From a virus (taxonomy: Duplodnaviria; Heunggongvirae; Uroviricota; Caudoviricetes), in the IMG/VR virus record IMGVR_UViG_3300019755_000001: 64,000 nt of DNA, one strand, 5' to 3'. Each line of letters opens with the position of its first letter. Position 1 is the first letter of the stretch. Shown one piece after another: positions 185 to 43,295 of this stretch. A program made the translations under genes and the position numbers. Under the pieces are notes generated by a model, which saw only the letters and a list, made by a program, of their open reading frames with translations, was not told the origin of the DNA and did no database searches.

Positions 185-2131
185 TTAGAATACGGTACTA
201 TTACCATATTCTTCTGGTTCTTCATAGTCGAAGTCACTGTATATTGACCTGGTGTATCCACCTTGGCTTTCTTGTAGTGGTACGCCTTCACTTGGTGTTT
301 GTGTCTGCATACTCACTTGTAGCATTGTTAGCAAATCAGGCCCGTCATCAGATCGTGTGAACTGCTCGTGTGTTGCGCCTTTTACTTGACTAACCCATTC
401 TTTCATATCTGGTGTGTGCTCCAAATGTGCAGGCAACCACAACTTTTTCTGTTGCATTATCTGTGCAGCAATCCTGAACCTCTCGTGTTTCTTAACCCCT
501 GTTGATCTACTCAGTATACCTTTTCTATCACTATTAGGGTTATTTCGATCTCTTGCAAATGTATAGAAGTCCCCACGTTTCATCATCTCTTGTTCTAGTG
601 AGTACACATGTGCGGTTTGTCCACCATCAAGCTCAACGCCAAGTTCTATGTGCTTACCACGTCTTCTCCAGTTGGATAATTCGTTCATTGTACCTGTATA
701 CTGTTCCGCCATGTTCATCTTACGTAGTGCTAAGTCCAGCATGAATATATCCCCATTATTACTAATAGCCCATGTTGCTCTACCACTGTAATCAGATTGC
801 TCACCACTTGTTGTTGTGTAGTCCGTTGTTACATACAAGTTGTACATGTGTATATTTTTGATTATGTACTGCATGTCTACGAACTGGAAACAATCATCTT
901 GGACTAGTCTATCTGCACCACTTGTTAATCGTAGCATCCTCTCCTGCATGAACTTATTTAATGTCCTGGTCTTTTTAGCATCTCTCACTAAGGCTATAAT
1001 TGACTTACTTGGATGATAGGACTCCCAAGTACTGTTTATGTCCTTAGTAGTCAGTACCTCAGATTCTGCGTCGAAGTCATTAGCTAGTGGAATAACGCAC
1101 GGAGTATAAGCCCCACTAAGCACGAGTCTAGTATTTACGTCTGTGTACGAGAAGGGGGTGAAACAGTTAAGTATCCGTCCTTTACCCCCACCCTTTAGTG
1201 CTGCAACTGAATCCGAGTGGATCACCAACTCTAGGTTTTCAGTAATTGTCTTTGAGTATGCTGCTGATTCATTAAGTATAATATCATCATTAATTATGCA
1301 GCAGATTCTTCTTTGACCGTATCTTATCCCTCTTACCCCTGTTCCTACACCCTGGTACCTAATCAGGAATGACCTATTTTTCCTTGGGCCGTTTCCTTTT
1401 CTAACGAACTCCGACTCTGTTTCTGTGAACCTCATCTCTTCAAAGTACCCCAGCAGGAACTCACTCTCTTCACACATTGCTCTGACTGCAAGGGCATTTA
1501 CTCTTGCACCCCCACGACTCGAGGCAGCTAGTACTAGGTAGAACCACACTTTACCTATGCCGTTTGGTAACTCACCTTTTATTGCACTATACACTCCAAA
1601 GAATGATATAACTACTGAAGACTTAGCAACCCCTCTACTACACATAAATGCTAGTCGTAAGTGATTTATCTCTATAGTATCACAGATTTCCTTACTGTAA
1701 GGGAACATATGCGGATCTGTTATATTGTTTAGTAGTAGATCTACCATGAAGTAGTGGGCTATAGGAGTATCAAACTCGAAGTCCCCTCCCTCTATTAATC
1801 TCATTATCGTAAAGAACTCAAACGCCTCTTGACTTGGTGTATATCCTGGAAATGCAGGGTCATAACTATCTAGTGCAAAGTCCAACTCGAACTCTTTGGT
1901 ATTTATTGCGTGCTCTAATAACTCTTTATTGAATTCTTCATCAGCATCTATGGCTTCATCTGCAATTACTTCTTCTGTGTATTCTATTTCAGCATAATCG
2001 TCTTCGAAGGTGACTGCCGAATACTCATCGACTGCAGGAGGTTGACTGACGTATTTACGTAGCTTTTTTAATACCTCTGGAGGTAGGTCAAAGCTTTCTA
2101 TTTCGGCCAATTCTTCTTTAGTCATCCTCAA
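185..2131 (-). CDS. terL: terminase large subunit (ATPase + nuclease)
   Basis: 648 aa. Walker A-like MCSRGVAKSS resembles T4 gp17 LSRQLGKT, with a Walker B-like ICCIINDD. The C-terminal nuclease region has acidic motifs (TTDYTT...GDIFMLDLA and a final DDGPDLL), typical of the Terminase_6 C-terminal domain. Confidence 0.7.
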   Translation of the reverse strand: MRMTKEELAEIESFDLPPEVLKKLRKYVSQPPAVDEYSAVTFEDDYAEIEYTEEVIADEAIDADEEFNKELLEHAINTKEFELDFALDSYDPAFPGYTPSQEAFEFFTIMRLIEGGDFEFDTPIAHYFMVDLLLNNITDPHMFPYSKEICDTIEINHLRLAFMCSRGVAKSSVVISFFGVYSAIKGELPNGIGKVWFYLVLAASSRGGARVNALAVRAMCEESEFLLGYFEEMRFTETESEFVRKGNGPRKNRSFLIRYQGVGTGVRGIRYGQRRICCIINDDIILNESAAYSKTITENLELVIHSDSVAALKGGGKGRILNCFTPFSYTDVNTRLVLSGAYTPCVIPLANDFDAESEVLTTKDINSTWESYHPSKSIIALVRDAKKTRTLNKFMQERMLRLTSGADRLVQDDCFQFVDMQYIIKNIHMYNLYVTTDYTTTSGEQSDYSGRATWAISNNGDIFMLDLALRKMNMAEQYTGTMNELSNWRRRGKHIELGVELDGGQTAHVYSLEQEMMKRGDFYTFARDRNNPNSDRKGILSRSTGVKKHERFRIAAQIMQQKKLWLPAHLEHTPDMKEWVSQVKGATHEQFTRSDDGPDLLTMLQVSMQTQTPSEGVPLQESQGGYTRSIYSDFDYEEPEEYGNSTVF

Positions 2132-2918
2132 CCTCCACAGTATGCACTATATTCAGTCTCTGTACTTCGTTTATCGACTTTCCGGCTTTGTAGTTAGTCA
2201 TTTGCATCTCTGCCATTTTAGAAATCTGCTCAGCTAGATTATTTTGTGACTCAATTGACGCATCACTCATCCCAATCTTCAGTTCCATCGTATTGTCTTC
2301 CGGCATCTTCACTGCATCGTATGCTGCTATTGTTGCGTTCAGCTGCACTGTCGGACTTACGTAATCGTCTGGTTTTGCTCCTACTCCGTTACTCAAGTTT
2401 ACCATCTTTTGTAGTAATTGGTTACGTAGTGGTGCATGTGTGATGTGTACCCCAACCATTACCAACTTCTGTACTTCTATTACTGCTTTTGTGTTTGAGT
2501 ACATACTAGCGAAGTTATCTACTGTCGCACCTCTGCCCTCAATCTCTACGGTCTTCTCTGGGAACACCACTCTGTATGCCTTTGCACTTCCACCCATTAC
2601 TTCTCGTAGTGTCACATACTTTATTGCGTTCATCAACTTCTCTACGCTGATACCAGGCCCAATCAAGTGTGCATAGCTGCATATCTGCTCTTCGAACAAC
2701 CCTTGGTCCATCCCGGTATCTTGCTCTACTCTATTGATCAGTTTCAGTATCTCGTCTGTGATTGTTACCGAACTGCCCTTTGGCATGAACGACTCTAATC
2801 TCTCACGTGTTAGTAGTTGTTTATTTGTATTCCTTGGAGCCCATTTACTGGCTAATTCCTCTTGGGTGAACTCACCTTGGATCTCGGTTGTCAGCCTATC
2901 TTCTATCTTACTTCCCAT
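2118..2918 (-). CDS. hypothetical protein; terminase small subunit suggested by position only
   Basis: 266 aa ORF immediately upstream of terL with a 14 nt overlap. No diagnostic motif was recognised. Confidence 0.3.
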   Translation of the reverse strand: MGSKIEDRLTTEIQGEFTQEELASKWAPRNTNKQLLTRERLESFMPKGSSVTITDEILKLINRVEQDTGMDQGLFEEQICSYAHLIGPGISVEKLMNAIKYVTLREVMGGSAKAYRVVFPEKTVEIEGRGATVDNFASMYSNTKAVIEVQKLVMVGVHITHAPLRNQLLQKMVNLSNGVGAKPDDYVSPTVQLNATIAAYDAVKMPEDNTMELKIGMSDASIESQNNLAEQISKMAEMQMTNYKAGKSINEVQRLNIVHTVEVEDD

Positions 2919-3099
2919 CTACAGTATTCCTCTCGATCTGTTCTTTGTACCACTTTTTTTCTCTGTCATCAGCATTCCTGCATAACGGTGTTACATTCTT
3001 TAGTTTGCAGTTCACAACACTACCAACTGTTAGTGTCATTGGTAGCCCATCAACTTCTTTGCTTGTGCTGCTCACTTGAGCTTTATAATGAATCTTCAT
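2908..3099 (-). CDS. hypothetical small protein (63 aa)
   Basis: Fills the gap between the PhoH-like gene and the 2118-2918 gene. AAAGG RBS upstream; 11 nt overlap with the downstream start. Confidence 0.3.
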   Translation of the reverse strand: MKIHYKAQVSSTSKEVDGLPMTLTVGSVVNCKLKNVTPLCRNADDREKKWYKEQIERNTVDGK

Positions 3100-3190
3100 T
3101 GAAGTGCCTTTGTTGTTTTTCTTTAGTATACTGTAGTGTTTCTTAAGGAGTGTTGAAGTAGTGTTGACTAAGGCCGAGTGACCTTAGTGT

Positions 3191-4570
3191 TTATTTGCTG
3201 AACAGCCCTTCTGCAAACAGTGCCATATCACTTCTCACAACTTTGTGTAGCGTAATTGCGAACATGTTGATGTCTGTATCTACCATTCTTCGGTTAGCTT
3301 CATCCATCAGCACAGCCAACCCATTGTTGTACTTATTCACGTATTTGTTGTCTATTTGGCGCTGACTACCAATCACTATCACCTTGCAGTTCTTACCAAC
3401 TCTTGTCAGTATTTTCTGTGTAGTTGCTGTGTTTCCATTTTGTGCCTCATCGATGATGAACACTGTATCGTGGAATGTTCTACCTCTCAACCCAGTTGAT
3501 ATCATCGACTCCATACCGCAATCTGCTACTAATTTGTCACGTTTCTCCTCAACCATTTGGTCAATCTCAATCTTCTTCTTGCCTTTTGGGTTAATCTCAC
3601 TTCTTACGATGAAGTCTAGTGTATCTTCCATTGGGCCGAGGTATACGCTCATCTTCTCATCATTTCCTGCTAAGTAGCCAATGTCCTCACCGCTTTCTTC
3701 ATCATTGATTGGGGATCTGATGTACACTATCGAGCTATACTTGTCTCTGTTAGTCTCAACCAACCTAATTGCGTTGCTCAGTGCTACCACATTTTTACCT
3801 GATCCAGCAAGTCCTTCTATTAGTACCAAGTCCATTGTTGGGTCTTGTATTGCTTTACTTGCAAGTAACTGCTCCGAATTGATTGGTCCACATCTTTGCT
3901 TACGCAAGTCTTTCTCTGTGGTATCACCAAGCACACTAACGAACCCATTTGTTACTGTTGCTAACTTCATCTGGTTTGTATTTGGGTTTGTGAATTTATA
4001 GCTATAGTTACCAATTTGGTAGTCTGGGTCAATCCCAAGCACGTCACTGTTGTGTAGTGTTCTGAATTGCTCATCATCTTCTACTGCCAACTCTTTCACG
4101 AACTCAATTGGCACATCCTCAACTGCTTTCAGGCTAGTCACTTCCACCCCTTTTGCTATTGCCTGGAACTTCATATGCAAGTCGTTTGTCATTAGTGGAC
4201 AACCCAACTTCTGTGCAACTTCAATTATTCGCCTGTCATTACCACCGTAATCTGCAGCATCTGCTTCGTACGAATTTAGTGCAACTATCCCCAACATGTA
4301 CTTACTTTGTACAAGCAGTTCAGTTATTGTACCATACTTCGGGTGTCTTGTTACTACGATTTCAGCACTCTCTAGTATTCTAGCTGCAGCTCTTGCCTGG
4401 AAGTTGATTTCCTCGAACCCACCTTTGTGTTTGTCTGTCTCGGATAATACAGTCTCACATAGAATTACCAGTGTGTCTTCTACCAGCATATCTTGTGCGT
4501 TATTTAGCAGGATATTTGTATCCATCACAATTGTTTTCATGTTACTTACCTGCCTTTTTCTTGTTCTCAT
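3191..4570 (-). CDS. phoH: PhoH-like ATPase with N-terminal PIN domain (PhoH2/YlaK-type)
   Basis: 459 aa. The N-terminus (MKTIVMDTNILLNN...) is PIN-like. Walker A LIEGLAGSGKNV and Walker B VFIIDEAQN are in the PhoH arrangement. Confidence 0.8.
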   Translation of the reverse strand: MRTRKRQVSNMKTIVMDTNILLNNAQDMLVEDTLVILCETVLSETDKHKGGFEEINFQARAAARILESAEIVVTRHPKYGTITELLVQSKYMLGIVALNSYEADAADYGGNDRRIIEVAQKLGCPLMTNDLHMKFQAIAKGVEVTSLKAVEDVPIEFVKELAVEDDEQFRTLHNSDVLGIDPDYQIGNYSYKFTNPNTNQMKLATVTNGFVSVLGDTTEKDLRKQRCGPINSEQLLASKAIQDPTMDLVLIEGLAGSGKNVVALSNAIRLVETNRDKYSSIVYIRSPINDEESGEDIGYLAGNDEKMSVYLGPMEDTLDFIVRSEINPKGKKKIEIDQMVEEKRDKLVADCGMESMISTGLRGRTFHDTVFIIDEAQNGNTATTQKILTRVGKNCKVIVIGSQRQIDNKYVNKYNNGLAVLMDEANRRMVDTDINMFAITLHKVVRSDMALFAEGLFSK

Positions 4571-5693
4571 TGCCTAGTTCAGCTTCCCATCGTTCGGCTT
4601 TCTCCGTGTCTGTTAATCCGTCTAACCCTAGTATATCTCTAGTAAATAATTCCGTATTTCCTGTGCTCATTACTTTATCCCCCTTGTACTTGTGTCTAGT
4701 GTACTTTTTTAATATGTGTTGCTCCACCTTGTAAGCGGAAGCGCCATTATCGTATTCTGTTGTATAGATTAGTCTTATCTGGTCTCTATCGAACTGAGTC
4801 CTATATCTCTGCTCTATGCTTTGTGAGGTCAGCCCTATTTTGTAGAGGTCTGTTCCTATTACGTTGAAGTAGTAAACCATACACTTTTTATGGATGTCTC
4901 CTTTACCTCCTCCATAGCTTACACAGTGTTTGCAGCCATAGCCACTTAAGTGCCCTGATGCCAGTTGTTCAAAATCTCCGTGTTCAGGGCATGTTATTGT
5001 AATCTTGTCTCTAGCAGCTGTATACGTAGTCTTATCGTAGGTATACTTATCTCCGTGAACTTTCTTTGCTTTCTGGATAAATTCCTCTTGTGAGCACTCT
5101 TTACTCTTGGCACTAGAGACTACCCCACACTTAGGACACCCTGTACCATTTAAGTGGTTTGTAGGGGATTGACTAAATCTACCATGTTCAGGGCATATAA
5201 TCGTCACAGGAGTAGTTGATAACGTATACTCGACTTCAGCGTAGTCGAACTTGTTTGCGTGTAGTATGTTTGCAGACTCTATGAAACTTACAGTAGTATG
5301 TGTATTATTGCCGCACTTTGTACAACCTTTACCAGCTAGGTGTTGGTCGCAGCGTTGCTCAAACTCTCCATGTACGGAACAGATAATTTTTACTTTATTC
5401 CTAGAGGTCGCATTAATTACTTTGCTGTAATCATATACGTCTCTATGTACTTTACGGGCCCGCTCTATGAAATTCTCGTCAGTCATTTTAATTCTGACTC
5501 CGGCACACACAGGACACCCTTGTCCTCTGCCATAGTGCTTCGAGGGAGACTGCCAGAAGCCTCCGTGCTCAGGACACACTATTTCAATCTTTGTTTTTGC
5601 GTCTATGTATTTCACCTTACTATAATCATACTTATAATTATGCTTATTGTTAGCTCTTTGGATAACTTCTTCAACTGTTAGTGACTTCGCCAT
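4542..5693 (-). CDS. homing-endonuclease-like protein: four N-terminal Cys/His repeats plus a C-terminal T5orf172/GIY-YIG-like domain
   Basis: 383 aa. Four ~48-aa repeats of the form (V/K)H.DxYDYSKV...I.CP.HG.F.Q.P..HL.G.GCP.C. The C-terminus (VYYFN...YKIGLTSQSIEQRY...STGNTELF) matches the T5orf172-type GIY-YIG-like fold. Confidence 0.6.
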   Translation of the reverse strand: MAKSLTVEEVIQRANNKHNYKYDYSKVKYIDAKTKIEIVCPEHGGFWQSPSKHYGRGQGCPVCAGVRIKMTDENFIERARKVHRDVYDYSKVINATSRNKVKIICSVHGEFEQRCDQHLAGKGCTKCGNNTHTTVSFIESANILHANKFDYAEVEYTLSTTPVTIICPEHGRFSQSPTNHLNGTGCPKCGVVSSAKSKECSQEEFIQKAKKVHGDKYTYDKTTYTAARDKITITCPEHGDFEQLASGHLSGYGCKHCVSYGGGKGDIHKKCMVYYFNVIGTDLYKIGLTSQSIEQRYRTQFDRDQIRLIYTTEYDNGASAYKVEQHILKKYTRHKYKGDKVMSTGNTELFTRDILGLDGLTDTEKAERWEAELGNENKKKAGK

Positions 5694-22814: not shown

Positions 22815-22831
22815 CTAGCTTCGTGCTAGTT
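22813..22831 (+). terminator. possible hairpin at the operon end (AACTAGC-ttcgt-GCTAGTT)
   Basis: 7-bp stem overlapping the stop codon. There is no clean U-tract, so this is weak. Confidence 0.3.
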
Positions 22832-23304
22832 TACTTGTGAGTTGCTTATACTGGTGCTAACAACAGTGAGTAACGGCATGTTAGTTATATGGTCTAGCCA
22901 TACCGAGGAGTCATGACCTCATTATATGTTTACCAGCCGGTGATTAATACTAGTTAAACGATCGATAACAACATAAGCAATTCTCAAGTGAACTATTCAC
23001 TCCCAGCCCAGGGTCAGAGAGCAAATAGGTTATGTCTTCCTACACAAAAAGCGATTATCTTAGTACTATTGGAACAATTGTTTTCTACATTTGTTGTACT
23101 ACTTAAGAAATCAAAAAAAAAACTATTTACTGCAAACTATAGAAGAGGAACTATCATCAACCTCTTCTATAACTATGTGTGTTTCATTACAATAAAAGGA
23201 GAGCTTACCTTTGTCTTAAGAAACGCTGTCCCTGCCTACGCATACAAACACCAAGCTCGACACACATATAGTTATAGAAGAATAAATTAATTTAAAGGAC
23301 TAAT

Positions 23305-23892
23305 ATGATAACACTACAACAAGCAAACGAACTGTGTACACTAGCTCACGAAAACCAATGGCGTAGACCTAGAGGGATGAATAAAACTGATAGAATCCTA
23401 TTTTCAGACAAACTAGACTCATTGTCAGAAGAAGATGACTATGACGTTGATGTATATACTATTAATCATCACAGATTTTCATGGTCTGAAGGTGCAGAAG
23501 AGTGGTTTATGGAAGAGCCTTACCATACTCATCCTCAAGCAGTGGCTGCTATGATGAATACAGAGTACCGTAAGATCCTTGCACTCTTACATGATGTAAT
23601 TGAGGATACTGCCTATGAGCTTACTAATTGCATGGTAACAAAAAAATGCTACATAGTTATGCCCGACAAAGAACAGTACGCGATTTCTCATGATCTGTAC
23701 ATAGACTTAGAGTTGCTTACTAAAGACCCAAACCTTACGTACAGAGAGAATATCAGACGTATCAAGGACTCAGGTCGAGCAGACCCCATTGCTGTCAAGA
23801 TTGCTGACAATTGCAATAACTTATCTACTGGTACTGACAAGCAAAAAGAGCGGTACTTAACTGTCTCTCTACCAATCTTATTAAAGGATTAA
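23305..23892 (+). CDS. HD-domain (p)ppGpp hydrolase-like protein (SpoT/Mesh1 small-alarmone-hydrolase family)
   Basis: 195 aa. LAHENQWRR...EPYHTHPQAVAAMM...ILALLHDVIEDT...DPIAVKIADNCNNL parallels the RelA/SpoT hydrolase motifs (HxGQ.R..GePY..HPl.VA, LLHDVvEDT, KLADRLHNM). Confidence 0.55.
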   Translation: MITLQQANELCTLAHENQWRRPRGMNKTDRILFSDKLDSLSEEDDYDVDVYTINHHRFSWSEGAEEWFMEEPYHTHPQAVAAMMNTEYRKILALLHDVIEDTAYELTNCMVTKKCYIVMPDKEQYAISHDLYIDLELLTKDPNLTYRENIRRIKDSGRADPIAVKIADNCNNLSTGTDKQKERYLTVSLPILLKD

Positions 23893-23893
23893 C

Positions 23894-25081
23894 ATGACAT
23901 TACAACAAAAGAAAGAACTGTACGAGCAAGGTAATCATATTTGTTTACTAGAAAATAAGTTTGGTGACACTGATTGGTCAATACACGAAGACCCGAAATG
24001 GAATCCTCAATGGGGCTATCAACTAATCCACAAAAAGCACAGACACATCCTAGATGCTTACTTGGACGGTTGTGAGGTTTACGTTTGCCCTCAAACAGCA
24101 CCAGAGATTATAACAGACTTTATTGAAGGTTATGAAGAGGAATGGGAATACCTTGCAATTCCAGGGTCACTGAAGAACTGCTACTGTGAAGCTACTAACG
24201 TACATTATCAAATACTTTATTCTATAGCAAAGAACCCAGGGTCGTTATTTGACTTTAACTACGCTAAAAGTGAGGAATACTATGTTATATTCCCTAATGG
24301 ACAAAATAGCGAACAATACTCTAAAACATATGCAGTTATAGAAGAAGACATGAATAAAGTCGAATGGAACGAATCAATACAAAACTGGGTATATTGCCCA
24401 AAGGAGACTGAAGATGAAGCCAACAACTATTCATATACTGGAGATAATCACAGCGATAATAGCAGGGATGTTACTATGCAAGAAAATACTATAAACAACT
24501 TCAATGACTACGGGTTCACTGCTGACTTTCCTGGACACCTTACAGGTGAAATGGTTGAATTCTATAACCAGACATACCTCCTTGGGTACTTCTTAGAAGG
24601 TAAGATGAAACATCCTAGAGCACAGTTCTGGAACAAAGATACTGGTAGGATCTGGCAAGGGGAGTGTAACACGATGTACAACCTCACACCAATCGTACCT
24701 GAGTACCCTCTATTTAAGAAGAACGAAGCTGGTGATGTACTAAGAATAGATAGCGAGTTATCAGGCACATGGATGCTGTTAGCTAATAGCGATTTCATAG
24801 GAGATCCTGAGAACTTACAGGAAATTCCTGTGCTTTCTTCAGACTATTGGACTGACATTCCTTACGACTCTGAACGAGGTTTTTACCACGGACAACCTGT
24901 ATGGGTACACTTTGCAGACGACGCTTCTATGATATACTTCTATAATGCAGACAAAGACTTGTTTCACACAGCAGGTGGAGGCTGCATACATTCTAGTAAA
25001 GTAGAACCAATAGCACTAGAAGCACTACAACACATGCCATTCGTTTGGGAGCAGTATCAAGCCTTCATAAAGGAGAAATGA
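23894..25081 (+). CDS. hypothetical protein
   Basis: 395 aa. Its N-terminus MTLQQKKEL resembles MITLQQANEL of the upstream HD-domain protein. Confidence 0.5.
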   Translation: MTLQQKKELYEQGNHICLLENKFGDTDWSIHEDPKWNPQWGYQLIHKKHRHILDAYLDGCEVYVCPQTAPEIITDFIEGYEEEWEYLAIPGSLKNCYCEATNVHYQILYSIAKNPGSLFDFNYAKSEEYYVIFPNGQNSEQYSKTYAVIEEDMNKVEWNESIQNWVYCPKETEDEANNYSYTGDNHSDNSRDVTMQENTINNFNDYGFTADFPGHLTGEMVEFYNQTYLLGYFLEGKMKHPRAQFWNKDTGRIWQGECNTMYNLTPIVPEYPLFKKNEAGDVLRIDSELSGTWMLLANSDFIGDPENLQEIPVLSSDYWTDIPYDSERGFYHGQPVWVHFADDASMIYFYNADKDLFHTAGGGCIHSSKVEPIALEALQHMPFVWEQYQAFIKEK

Positions 25082-25212
25082 TGGCAAATCAAGGATACGT
25101 TTGTAAGAAATGTAAACAGTACAATTCAACAGGTGATCTAACTTGTTGGAGATGCGAAGCTAATTGGTTTGACTAATTGGAAACAATACCAAACATTTAT
25201 AAAGGAGAAGTG

Positions 25213-25422
25213 ATGATATTAGAAAGTCTAGAAGTAAACGGCAAATTCACTGATGCTGAGTTAACAACAAATGCATTACACATAAATGGTAGTAAGCCTG
25301 ACTTAAGGTTTGATGTAGTAGGAGACCATGTCTACACGATAACAAACGGTGTAGATACGGTTGTAGTAGCTGCAGACATGGGAAATAGCCACGGTGTAGT
25401 ACTATCTATCACCAATTACTAA
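25213..25422 (+). CDS. hypothetical protein
   Basis: Start moved to Met13 after an AAGGAG RBS; 69 aa. Confidence 0.35.
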   Translation: MILESLEVNGKFTDAELTTNALHINGSKPDLRFDVVGDHVYTITNGVDTVVVAADMGNSHGVVLSITNY

Positions 25423-25762
25423 AGTAACCAAACAGGCACAGACTTCTAACCACCCGTACGCGATGGAATTAGTGGTGGAGTAGTGTTAAACGACATCATA
25501 ATCGATGGAACCTGTAATCTTACCTAACTATTGAAAGACATAGAGGCGAAACAACGTGAGGTCATTGCTGGAGCAGAAACAACCTGTTCCGTGTGCTATT
25601 GGCGCCTTGCTAGGTAAGCCACTCGCTACAGAGGGTACAACCAGTGATGTCAATGTCATCGCATGCTACGGGAGATCCTGCAGAAGTGTTGGTAAACTGA
25701 GTCTGGTCTTGTCAGAGGAGAATTGGAACGACTCCTGTAAACTAACTAGATTCCACCCGTAT

Positions 25763-25872
25763 GCAGTATTAGCTCAGTTGGTAGAGCACTTTCCAAGTAA
25801 TTGTCTGGAGAACACCCTCTAATTAAGAGGTGCAAGAGAGTTAGGTCCCTGGTTCGAGCCCAGGATACTGCA
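25763..25872 (+). tRNA. tRNA-like gene, 110 nt, with a ~35-42 nt insertion in the anticodon region
   Basis: Perfect 7-bp acceptor (GCAGTAT/ATACTGC). Canonical D-arm (TAGCTCAGTTGGTAGAGC), variable loop AGGTC and T-arm (CCTGG-TTCGAGC-CCAGG), discriminator A. Between the 6-bp helix ACTTTC/GAGAGT sits 42 nt that contains its own hairpin (CACCCTC-TAATTAA-GAGGTG). No canonical 7-nt loop with U33 could be derived. Confidence 0.45.
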
Positions 25873-26056
25873 CAACCTGGTCAGTATTATCGGTACAGGT
25901 GTGAATGTACCAACTTTATTTATGCTGTGGAAGTGGGTAACAATACAGGATCGAGGCCTGTGCCCAGCACCACTCAGTCTTGGAAGCAAGTCTGTTTAAC
26001 TAGCCGTATATAGATAAGTCTGCAGGGTGTAGCTCTGGGGGTAACAGCCCGGGTCG

Positions 26057-26073
26057 CAAGGTTCGAATCCTTG
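26057..26073 (+). ncRNA. isolated T-arm-like hairpin (CAAGG-TTCGAAT-CCTTG); no matching acceptor stem
   Basis: Perfect T-stem/loop consensus, but no complementary 5' acceptor within 120 nt. A GGGTAACA motif is repeated at 25935 and 26035. Confidence 0.25.
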
Positions 26074-26180
26074 AAAGTATACGCAACCTACTACAGTCGT
26101 ACAATCGTTATACTCCTTGGGAGTTGAGTACGCAACCATTCTCGACGGTCCATGTAACGTGCAACATGGAGCTTTTATAT

Positions 26181-26300
26181 GAAAGAGTGACAGAGTAGGG
26201 AGTAGTTAGCAAGCTATTCTGCAATGTGTGAGTGTATATGTAACATCACTCGACGGTTCTTTACACAACCACGTAGGTTGAAATCCTACCTCTTTCACCA
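26181..26300 (+). tRNA. tRNA-like gene, 117 nt plus encoded CCA, with a ~40 nt insertion
   Basis: Perfect 7-bp acceptor (GAAAGAG/CTCTTTC). T-arm GTAGG-TTGAAAT-CCTAC, discriminator A, then CCA. The central region is expanded. It contains GGTT-CTTTACAC-AACC with an 8-nt loop bearing TTA. Confidence 0.4.
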
Positions 26301-26309
26301 ATTTTATAC

Positions 26310-26380
26310 GGACGTTTACCCAATCTGGTCTGAATGTGGCAGGTCGCTCCTGTAGGTCGGTTCAATTCCGACAACGTCCA
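26310..26380 (+). tRNA. tRNA-like gene, 71 nt, non-canonical D/anticodon region
   Basis: Perfect 7-bp acceptor (GGACGTT/AACGTCC). T-arm GTCGG-TTCAATT-CCGAC, discriminator A. The D and anticodon arms could not be folded into the canonical form by eye. Confidence 0.4.
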
Positions 26381-26589
26381 CACACTTTTATATGCCGAGT
26401 ATGTACCGCATGCTATAGTACACAGCGCAACTGGAAGGGAGGGACCTTCTGCTCGGCTCCAACACCTCATTACTAAGCAACTACTGAGTTGTTTATTTAT
26501 GAAGTAACTAATAAAGGACTAATATGGATGACAAACCTACGTCAGAATCATGGTTTAAAACCATTAACAAATACCTCTAAGGATTAACT

Positions 26590-32915: not shown

Positions 32916-34061
32916 ATGAAATTACATCCAGGTATTACCAATCCTAGATCTATACAGGCTTATAAAAATTTTAAAAAGAAGCTAATTGGTCTGTATGATG
33001 ATAAATGTGATTATAGTGAGGCTGTGTACACAGGTGCTAAAAATCCTATTACGATTACGTGTAAAATACATAATTTTACTTATAAGCAAAGAGCTGAAGG
33101 ACACCTTAAAAGTTCTGGGTGTAGTAGATGTAAAAACGAGGCTGTAGGAAATCGTTTACGTAAATCAGTTTTCAGTTTTATTGCGGAGGCCGTTGAAGTA
33201 CATAATGATTTTTACACCTACTCTAATATTTCTTATCACTCTGCACATGAACCTGTGATCATTACTTGCCCAATCCACGGGGATTTTAAGCAAGTACCTA
33301 CAAATCACCTAAAAGGTGTTGGGTGCAGAAAGTGTGGCATTGCAAAGAGTAGCCAAGCTAAAAAATCCAGTACTCAAGAATTTATACTACAAGCAAAAGC
33401 AGTGCATAATAATACTTACACTTATACAAACGTCGAGTACACAACTGCAAGAGACAATGTAAAAATAACCTGTCCAATACATGGAGACTTTGAACAAACT
33501 CCTAGTAGTCATTTGGTTGGGTCTGGTTGCCCTAGATGTCTAGGTAGGAATAAAACCACGAAAGACTTTATCAAAGAATCACAAAAAGTACATAATAATA
33601 AGTACTATTACTCAAATACAATATACACAAATGCGAAAAGTAAAGTGATAATCACTTGCTCAACGCATGGTGATTTTGAACAAATAGCCTCCGATCACCT
33701 ATCAGGTAGAGGCTGCTCTTCCTGTACGAAAACGGGGTTTGATGGGGCTAAATCAGCTGTACTATATTATCTTTCAATCAATAACGGAGAAGCGTATAAG
33801 ATCGGTATAACAAACCGGACAATTAAAGAGAGATTCGGGCTTGATATGAGTAATATCAGAGTCTTACATCAAATCCATTATAAGTCCGGAAAAGATGCTT
33901 ACAATGAGGAACAGCGAATTCTTAGAGAATTCATTGACCATAAGTATACAGGTCCTGACTTATTGAAGTCAGGTAATACAGAATTATTCAAAACGAATAT
34001 CCTTAACCTAGCTTATGAGAAGTTCAAGGATATGGAATTATTTAGTAGAGAAGGAGATTAA
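32916..34061 (+). CDS. homing-endonuclease-like protein; paralog of 4542-5693 (four Cys/His repeats plus T5orf172/GIY-YIG-like domain)
   Basis: 381 aa. Four repeats (VHN.FYTYSN..Y.....ITCPIHGDFEQ.P..HL.G.GC..C). C-terminus VLYYLSINNGEAYKIGITNRTIKERF...SGNTELF. Confidence 0.6.
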   Translation: MKLHPGITNPRSIQAYKNFKKKLIGLYDDKCDYSEAVYTGAKNPITITCKIHNFTYKQRAEGHLKSSGCSRCKNEAVGNRLRKSVFSFIAEAVEVHNDFYTYSNISYHSAHEPVIITCPIHGDFKQVPTNHLKGVGCRKCGIAKSSQAKKSSTQEFILQAKAVHNNTYTYTNVEYTTARDNVKITCPIHGDFEQTPSSHLVGSGCPRCLGRNKTTKDFIKESQKVHNNKYYYSNTIYTNAKSKVIITCSTHGDFEQIASDHLSGRGCSSCTKTGFDGAKSAVLYYLSINNGEAYKIGITNRTIKERFGLDMSNIRVLHQIHYKSGKDAYNEEQRILREFIDHKYTGPDLLKSGNTELFKTNILNLAYEKFKDMELFSREGD

Positions 34062-42916: not shown

Positions 42917-42987
42917 GAAGCATTCGTCTAGTGGTAGGACCACAACATTAAAATCAGTGTACCCAGGTTCGATTCCTGGATGCTTCA
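42917..42987 (+). tRNA. tRNA-like gene, 71 nt, with an enlarged anticodon loop
   Basis: Perfect acceptor GAAGCAT/ATGCTTC. D-arm GTC-TAGTGGTAG-GAC. T-arm CCAGG-TTCGATT-CCTGG, discriminator A. The anticodon region CACAACATTAAAATCAGTG only forms a 3-4 bp stem with a ~9-13 nt loop. Confidence 0.4.
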
Positions 42988-43043: not shown

Positions 43044-43122
43044 GGACATTTAGCTCAGTGGTAGAGCGCCTGCACTAGCATGAAATAACAGGAGGCCACA
43101 AGTTCAACTCTTGGAATGTCCA
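43044..43122 (+). tRNA. tRNA-like gene, 79 nt, with a ~15-nt anticodon loop
   Basis: Acceptor GGACATT/AATGTCC. Canonical D-arm TAGCTCAGTGGTAGAGCG. The 5' anticodon stem CCTGC is followed by ACTAGCATGAAATAA and then (A)CAGG. T-arm CAAG-TTCAACT-CTTG. 3' end A-CC. Confidence 0.4.
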
Positions 43123-43295
43123 CCTTACACCGCAACATGCTCATGAAAGAGGCGGTATATAAATAGACAAGTGAAGAGCAGGAATGGGGAATTGATAGAA
43201 TCATCCGCAGCCTTAAAGAGCAAGGGAACTATCACGAACAAGTAGGGTCTTATCCAATTGGATTTGTACTTCTACGCAAACAGTAAATTTACGCA

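Follow-up and report, generated by a model that had tools for sequence, protein, structure and literature searches.

Which nucleotide a stand-alone alarmone hydrolase encoded by a phage would act on, and what the phage might gain from it, is the question raised by one gene in IMG/VR record IMGVR_UViG_3300019755_000001, a virus of the class Caudoviricetes. The stretch of DNA analysed, hereafter the window, is 64,000 nt long. The gene occupies positions 23305..23892 (+), stop codon included, starts with ATG and encodes 195 residues forming a single domain, the HD domain of the RSH family; a preliminary description of the locus had given its coordinates exactly. We annotate it as a small alarmone hydrolase (SAH). 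Judging from sequence, structural model and analogy with known enzymes, we consider it likely that the product, with (p)ppGpp and/or (p)ppApp as substrate, works as a metal-dependent 3'-pyrophosphohydrolase, with which the phage would keep alarmones low and defuse RSH-toxin defences.

Family assignment and catalytic site

The open reading frame (ORF) is a real gene of an uncultured phage of about 107 kb. An identical hydrolase protein is encoded on 11 or more metagenomic contigs (JGI, ENA and Logan assemblies), the longest of them 107.7 kb. Its start codon is contained in a recurrent initiation motif of this phage, AAAGGAYTAAYATG, with exact copies at 23294, for the hydrolase gene, and at 23883, for the next gene. 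The ribosome-binding and start motif of the hydrolase gene, AAAGGACTAATATG, spans 23294..23307 (+) and recurs at gene starts, nine times in the window against 0.14 expected. That the gene is phage-encoded is borne out by its surroundings, which include genes for a large terminase, PhoH, two HNH homing endonucleases, helicases, a family-A DNA polymerase and a primase; Pfam scans additionally gave lysozyme, Clp protease, methylase and other domains. The phage has no close cultured relative, since a megablast search of 4 kb against INPHARED gave no match and the terminase shares only about 28% identity with its counterparts in N4-like phages.

Searches with the single protein sequence retrieved PHROG_990, annotated as 'metal-dependent phosphohydrolase' (E 5.8e-14), and a local match to the NCBIfam model spoT_relA (TIGR00691; residues 71-108, E 2.2e-5). 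With phmmer against the PDB, E-values were between 0.02 and 0.5, and every match was a Rel, SpoT or SAH chain. A tblastn search against phages returned only partial matches, at 33% identity, to phosphohydrolases of S. pneumoniae prophages. These searches are weak but consistent, and profile comparisons appear to settle the family assignment. A profile built from 15 metagenomic homologues (A1) matched RSH hydrolase domains exclusively in the PDB, with a best E-value of 4e-7. HMMER searches over 1.84 billion cluster representatives detected 4,538 relatives at E <= 1e-3, of which 307 remain at a cut-off of 1e-10 and 61 at 1e-30. A second profile (A3) was built from 49 relatives lacking a long insertion that the window protein carries (see below), four of them being 72-81% identical to the window protein across the shared core. 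The A3 profile aligned full length with the (p)ppApp hydrolase Aph1 (adenosine 3'-pyrophosphohydrolase 1) of Bacteroides caccae (PDB 7smg; residues 7-144 of 149, E 4.5e-31), followed by the hydrolase domains of Rel and SpoT (E 3e-22 to 3e-17), Mesh1 (E about 1e-14) and the P. aeruginosa SAH (E 8e-12). In both PDB searches, 22-23 RSH chains were matched and no other HD family.

The AlphaFold2 model of the protein (pLDDT 91.8, pTM 0.85) agrees with this assignment. The best 19 Foldseek matches in the PDB were all Aph1, Mesh1, RelH, TdActApo2, Lmo0812 or PaSAH, and the top matches in BFVD were RelA/SpoT-like HD proteins of phages. TM-scores against solved SAHs were about 0.5 when normalised to the query and up to 0.69 when normalised to Aph1, which was the best match (about 0.68-0.69, with 17-18% identity in the structural alignment).

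The catalytic site is intact. Residues were mapped through hidden Markov model (HMM) alignments to the Rel hydrolase domain RelSeq (1vj7) and to Aph1, together with MAFFT --add, and conservation was counted in the 156 other sequences of a family alignment of 157 representatives. The metal tetrad H76, H96, D97 and D168 corresponds to H53, H77, D78 and D144 of RelSeq and to H33, H53, D54 and D110 of Aph1, each ligand being kept in at least 152 of the 156 representatives. Loss of these His/Asp ligands, which would have spoken against the assignment, is thus not what the alignment gives. The first ligand lies in a PYxTH motif at 23518..23532 (+) together with Y73, the substrate-contact tyrosine. 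H96 and D97 fall within HDVIED at 23590..23607 (+), which also holds E100-D101, the catalytic pair of the HDxxED motif and the counterpart of Aph1 E57 and D58; the pair is invariant in A1, and in the wider family E100 is kept in 148/156 and D101 in 144/156 members. The fourth ligand, D168, stands in KIADNCNNLST (residues 165-175; 23797..23829, +) beside K165, N172, S174 and T175, whose roles follow PMC10083569. The pocket residues Y73, K165, N172 and Y184 are all present, each kept in at least 144/156. Motifs specific to RSH enzymes beyond the HD signature were also found, namely AHxGQxR, the ED pair after HD and KxAD..HN/NN. All three segments quoted in the preliminary description as signatures of the hydrolase domain are in the translation: EPYHTHPQAVAAMM at residues 71-84, ILALLHDVIEDT at 91-102 and DPIAVKIADNCNNL at 160-173.

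The whole of the 195 residues is covered by the HD core plus the insertion, with no TGS or ACT domain. No synthetase domain is present either, as described before, and none is found among the Pfam matches listed for the 53 ORFs of the window. The profile and fold matches, the metal ligands and the catalytic residues all support a stand-alone RSH-family HD hydrolase. Its earlier labelling as 'SpoT/Mesh1-like' is imprecise, 'Mesh1-like' being true of the superfamily only; the nearest relatives are instead the compact hydrolases Aph1 and PbcSpo, and the protein appears to belong to a compact Aph1/PbcSpo-like branch of the RSH superfamily. Mesh1 (human HDDC3, 3nr1/5vxa; Drosophila, 3nqw) shares the fold as a single-domain SAH (Foldseek E 1e-3 to 1e-2) but is clearly farther away in the profile comparison. 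According to PMC10083569, Mesh1 consists of nine or more helices and forms dimers. Aph1-type hydrolases have a compact eight-helix core and are tetrameric. The hydrolase domains of long RSHs (RelSeq 1vj7, B. subtilis Rel 7oiw, T. thermophilus Rel (TtRel) 6s2t and SpoT 7qps) share the fold and the catalytic residues; they are likewise farther than Aph1 and, unlike the window protein, are joined to synthetase and regulatory domains. The Arg of their HNxRT motif is replaced by Ser.

PbcSpo, gp220 of Salmonella phage PVP-SE1, is like the window protein a stand-alone SAH of a large lytic phage. Kinship with it was assessed through pairwise and profile comparison: gp220 aligned with the profile of the relatives at an hhalign probability of 99.6% (E 6e-24), its C-terminal region remaining unaligned, and direct BLASTP gave 31% identity over 103 residues (E 1e-6). 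It lacks the insertion, the corresponding loop reading ...NQKDKGGNPY..., and it keeps an Asp at the position of Aph1 D24, where the window protein has Arg.

A search with Pfam HD_4 (PF13328), suggested in the preliminary description as a check, turned out to be misleading. The window protein has no HD_4 match at E <= 1, and its only Pfam match, DUF4735 (E 0.071), is spurious. HD_4 was nevertheless matched by 43 of the 49 insert-less relatives at E <= 0.01 (best 5.8e-9); one insert-less relative (P0009) scored 17.9 bits against a gathering cut-off of 27.2. The gathering score is a threshold of model sensitivity and not a biochemical feature, and the insertion splits the domain. Taken alone, the HD_4 check would therefore have led us wrongly to reject the hydrolase.

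Sequence and model show H76, H96, D97 and D168 as the site of a divalent metal (Mn2+ or Mg2+), E100-D101 as the catalytic pair, and Y73, K165, N172 and R183-Y184 as lining the substrate pocket. From the chemistry of the family, the enzyme is expected to strip the 3'-pyrophosphate from hyperphosphorylated purine nucleotides. Expressed during infection, it may hold alarmone levels low, as suggested by analogy with tested phage SAHs, and with low alarmones the stringent response could not shut down host machinery that the phage needs. A possible added effect is the neutralisation of abortive-infection defences based on toxic small alarmone synthetases (toxSAS) or (p)ppApp toxins. The toxSAS-blunting role proposed earlier finds a precedent, by analogy, in the phage SAHs PbcSpo and PaSpo (the latter from phage SSU5), which neutralise every toxSAS tested, five in the case of PbcSpo (Jimmy et al. 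2020, PMC7229694).

Base pocket, loop insertion and candidate substrates

Aph1 is recognized by a signature of six residues, D24, R96, D116, R119, K133 and Y134, and the double variant D24R/R119A gains hydrolysis of ppGpp; in TtRel, R43 and R44 stack on the guanine base, to which N150 and T153 form hydrogen bonds (Ahmad et al. 2023, PMC10083569). In the window protein, the first of these positions lie in an N-terminal helix with AHxxQxRR (residues 11-21; 23335..23367, +), placed by HMM alignments to 1vj7 and 7smg. Its R20-R21 pair corresponds to the guanine-stacking pairs R44-K45 of RelSeq and R43-R44 of TtRel, and to D24-K25 of Aph1; R20 is kept in 143/156 family members. TtRel N150, which is Aph1 N114, corresponds to N172, and TtRel T153 to T175. 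Aph1 D116 is replaced by S174, and Aph1 R119 has no equivalent, as it falls within a four-residue segment specific to Aph1, or is matched by T177 if the alignment is left ungapped. None of the specificity residues D24, D116 and R119 is thus retained. The remaining signature residues do have counterparts, R152 for R96 and R183-Y184 (23851..23856, +) for K133-Y134; residue 183 is Lys in 142/156 family members, and a tyrosine of the Y134 type has been proposed to contact the substrate pyrophosphate (PMC10083569). The protein therefore appears to combine an Aph1-like scaffold with a Rel-like base pocket (R20, R21, N172 and T175). Since the contacts of the Rel type are present and the adenine-specificity residues of Aph1 are missing, guanine nucleotides are expected to be accepted, so that (p)ppGpp is probably a substrate, perhaps together with (p)ppApp. 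The preliminary description had named (p)ppGpp, which is plausible from the pocket residues; a (p)ppApp or dual specificity is conceivable as well.

A 50-residue insertion, overlooked before, lies directly behind the base-stacking pair (residues 22-71; 23368..23517, +). It was delimited with A1, the 157-member alignment and the secondary structure of the AlphaFold2 model. The loop from R21 to P72 comprises 50 residues here and 2-4 in RelSeq (S46-G47-E48), Aph1 and the insert-less relatives, of which P0009 and P0003 have the short loop DGVT. The model places a helix at 27-44 and β-strands at 50-53, 56-61 and 66-70, with pLDDT values of 73-89. The residues on either side of the insertion (R20, R21 and Y73) contact the base or the substrate in Rel enzymes, so it should emerge at the rim of the pocket, its placement relative to the active site being deduced from its entry point in the sequence. 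Insertions of 27-85 residues (median 45) were found in 85 of the 157 family representatives. They are variable in sequence but keep a skeleton consisting of Pro22, a [IV][LI]xNGxK[ILV]x[YW] hairpin and an aromatic residue before E71-P72. No solved SAH and no Pfam model covers the insertion, which may tune substrate access or mediate oligomerisation or contact with another protein. A second peculiarity is an extended central segment (residues 105-127; 23617..23685, +), where AlphaFold2 predicts three β-strands in place of the helices of solved SAHs. This central region is 37 residues long, against a median of 29 in short forms and 24 in Aph1. Without the insertion, the core amounts to about 145 residues and Aph1 aligns with it end to end; the model nonetheless differs by the central β-strands and the insertion.

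Several points weigh against hydrolysis of (p)ppGpp, or against the hydrolase reading as a whole. The closest solved relative, Aph1, is strictly specific for (p)ppApp, and part of its signature is kept. A handful of pocket residues is a weak basis for predicting the substrate, and for divergent phage SAHs such prediction was judged unreliable in a 2025 phage paper (PMC12846349). The insertion beside the pocket could change the substrate altogether. The missing HD_4 match belongs here as well, and so does the lack of a partner, given that no toxSAS or (p)ppApp toxin was found among the Pfam matches listed for the 53 ORFs.

An enzyme strictly specific for (p)ppApp, as Aph1 is, would guard the phage or the infected cell from toxins synthesising (p)ppApp (Tas1/Apk-type, FaRel) and would not act on (p)ppGpp. 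We regard this as unlikely, although it has more in its favour than the readings discussed below. Aph1 is the best solved match both by profile, over its full length, and by fold, and among the Aph1 homologues assayed, 12/12 hydrolysed ppApp and only two ppGpp (PMC10083569). The two proteins have in common the metal ligands, the ED pair, K107/K165, N114/N172, R96/R152 and the C-terminal K/R-Y, in addition to a compact core once the insertion is removed, and Aph1 is also phage-borne, in a temperate phage. However, the two residues shown experimentally to enforce adenine specificity, D24 and R119, are missing here, as is D116, and exchanging D24 and R119 together was the very change that opened Aph1 to ppGpp (PMC10083569). 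The insertion after R21 and the longer, β-predicted central segment also set the window protein apart from Aph1. Finally, unlike in the Aph1 locus, no adjacent MuF-(p)ppApp synthetase toxin or Tis1-type immunity gene occurs among the Pfam matches listed.

It is more doubtful still that the main substrate is the 3'-pyrophosphorylated CCA end of tRNA, as produced by CapRel, FaRel2 and PhRel defences, or a 3'-phosphorylated metabolite of the NADPH/PAPS type, with the insertion as a recognition module. FaRel2-modified tRNA can be aminoacylated again once the SAHs MESH1 or ATfaRel have acted on it (bioRxiv 10.1101/2021.04.30.441581), and PbcSpo and PaSpo neutralise tRNA-targeting toxSAS in vivo (PMC7229694). 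The position of the insertion, which to judge from its entry point emerges beside the base pocket, would suit this role, as would a cluster of tRNA-like genes 1.5 kb downstream of the hydrolase gene and an aminoacyl-tRNA synthetase gene just upstream of the SAH in one related phage. However, the insertion is strongly acidic (14 D/E against 5 K/R; median net charge in the family -2), unlike an RNA-binding module, and apart from its structural skeleton it is poorly conserved in sequence. Relatives without the insertion are otherwise 72-81% identical, which argues that the core activity is independent of it. Dephosphorylation of tRNA by SAHs is, moreover, compatible with alarmone hydrolysis. A generic HD-domain phosphohydrolase (a nucleotidase or dNTPase remodelling the nucleotide pool, with no link to alarmones) is highly improbable, for although the relatives bear only the database name 'metal-dependent phosphohydrolase', HD_4 is not reached and PVP-SE1 gp220 overlaps a thymidylate kinase gene, every significant sequence or fold match falls within the RSH hydrolase subfamily and the RSH-specific motifs are present.

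Genomic context of the hydrolase gene

The hydrolase gene sits within a co-directional block of small genes to which no function could be assigned. No RelA_SpoT synthetase, MuF or other toxin domain was found among the Pfam families listed for the 53 ORFs, and Pfam scans of the flanking ORFs gave no RelA_SpoT or toxin domain. As no toxic RSH synthetase is adjacent, the gene is an orphan SAH and not an antitoxin of the ATfaRel type or an Aph1-type immunity gene. Members of its close clade occur in six IMG/VR viral contigs, and a scan of 185,579 species-representative genomes, by two narrow peptide patterns only, retrieved no relative.

Upstream lies a gene-free leader of 490 bp (22815..23304, +), which had been described as ORF-free. 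The gap is real, though not literally free of ORFs, as it contains a 100-residue GTG-start ORF at 22988-23290; the initiation motif is absent from this ORF, and in four independent assemblies the gene callers left the gap empty. The leader RNA is unusually stable (fold z-score -3.87, none of 100 shuffles being as stable), owing to two 23-nt long-range inverted repeats forming stems (22827-22849/22973-22995 and 23163-23185/23259-23281) and to a perfect 11-bp hairpin (23138-23171). Its interior matched neither an Rfam family nor a sigma-70-like promoter or intrinsic terminator, and apart from the ribosome-binding site no repeated intergenic motif was found in the window. The leader is 100% identical in four other assemblies and the gap is absent from more distant relatives.

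The position immediately before the hydrolase gene is a hot spot at which genes for host manipulation are exchanged. In the related contig L008 it holds three TerD genes and TerC, stress proteins of the tellurite-resistance type (1945-4849), and in L009 a 438-residue class-II aminoacyl-tRNA synthetase (tRNA-synt_2b plus HGTP_anticodon; 224-1540). The upstream neighbours in L005 and L011 are small ORFs.

Downstream, a function-unassigned gene of 395 residues (23894..25081, +) starts 1 nt past the hydrolase stop. It gave no Pfam, PHROG or NCBIfam match and no fold match in the PDB, and its AlphaFold2 model is confident at residues 1-92 and 200-395 but not at 93-199. Across its family of proteins of about 395 residues (P0017-P0033), the motifs NNF and LTPI are invariant and the C-terminal MPFIWEQY is conserved. 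In related phages, this family and a lysozyme occur downstream of the SAH at variable distance; the spacing between the SAH and the 395-residue gene is 1 nt in the window and 0.36-3.2 kb in relatives, so that the two are loosely syntenic. With such variable adjacency and neither a family nor a fold for the neighbour, a functional link between the two genes is unsupported. The hydrolase gene ends in codons (…TTA AAG GAT TAA; 23883-23896, +) that double as the initiation motif AAAGGATTAACATG of its downstream neighbour. This embedded motif suggests translational coupling, in this phage only, which would constrain the hydrolase C-terminus …LLKD.

An echo between the N-termini of the two proteins had been pointed out. 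The strings MITLQQANEL and MTLQQKKEL are indeed alike, but the resemblance carries no significance, as hhalign aligned nine columns at a probability of 0.5%. We also considered the next gene as a degenerate paralogue of the hydrolase and rejected it: BLASTP gave E 0.41, the N-terminal domain of its AlphaFold2 model is α/β and not a helical HD bundle, and the echo is gone in the related L005 pair, where the SAH begins with MKLTTPEQAKAL and the neighbour still with MTLQQ.

A 39-nt direct repeat with a spacing of 132 nt (25045-25083 and 25177-25215, +; 79% identical) spans the ribosome-binding sites and starts of two consecutive small ORFs. One of these ORFs encodes a 43-residue CxxC...CxxC zinc-ribbon-like peptide (25045-25176, +).

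The ORF-poor stretch of 1.1 kb at 25430-26500 (+), about 1.5 kb downstream of the hydrolase gene, contains tRNA-like genes that standard scans miss. Rfam detected a tRNA at 25763-25872, where 110 nt are aligned to a model of 71 positions (44.6 bits, E 2e-7), and ARAGORN with intron search called it tRNA-Cys(gca) with a 37-nt insertion. Two more tRNAs were retrieved by ARAGORN at a relaxed threshold, at 26181-26300 (with a 39-nt insertion) and 26310-26381, and further T-arm-like GGTTCRAWTCC motifs are visible in the stretch. Elsewhere in the window, Rfam detected two tRNA genes at 42917-42987 and 43044-43124 (+), both with odd anticodon loops. ARAGORN found only the latter, as 'tRNA-???' with a two-base anticodon (ag), and with intron search it called the former tRNA-Phe(aaa) with a 2-nt insertion.

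The two HNH homing-endonuclease genes are paralogous and lie on opposite strands, at 4545-5693 (-) and 32916-34058 (+), each matching PHROG_681 (E ~1e-70). T5orf172, NUMOD4 and DUF723 domains are present elsewhere in the window, which together with the HNH pair suggests several mobile endonuclease insertions.

Implications for phage alarmone hydrolases

Phage SAHs have been tested since 2020 (PMC7229694) and are routinely noted in new phage genomes (e.g. PMC12846349). What is new here is a widespread, uncharacterised variant that combines a pocket-loop insertion, a β-rich central segment and a mosaic specificity signature, and that Pfam misses. The insertion-bearing proteins might even constitute a distinct, phage-restricted SAH subfamily in which the pocket-loop module retargets or regulates the enzyme. 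This idea, to which we give little credence, draws on the 85 insertion-bearing cluster representatives out of 157 and on the scan of species-representative genomes, in which two peptide patterns retrieved no relative. If it is true, the insertion might control access for a larger substrate (for instance a tRNA end carrying a pyrophosphate, or some other immune nucleotide) or dock onto a host RSH or toxSAS, and the protein would be a dedicated counter-defence enzyme and not a plain alarmone scavenger.

For the likelier hydrolysis of (p)ppGpp and/or (p)ppApp, the gene would represent a known but little-studied route by which phages interfere both with the stringent response and with abortive infection that relies on toxSAS or (p)ppApp. 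Its Aph1 scaffold with a Rel-like pocket offers a natural test of the specificity rules drawn from Aph1 D24R/R119A. Pocket-loop insertions of this kind are widespread in metagenomic phages. Annotation by Pfam overlooks this branch altogether, which probably leaves phage SAHs under-counted. The current picture of alarmone biology is refined, not changed, by this hydrolase gene.

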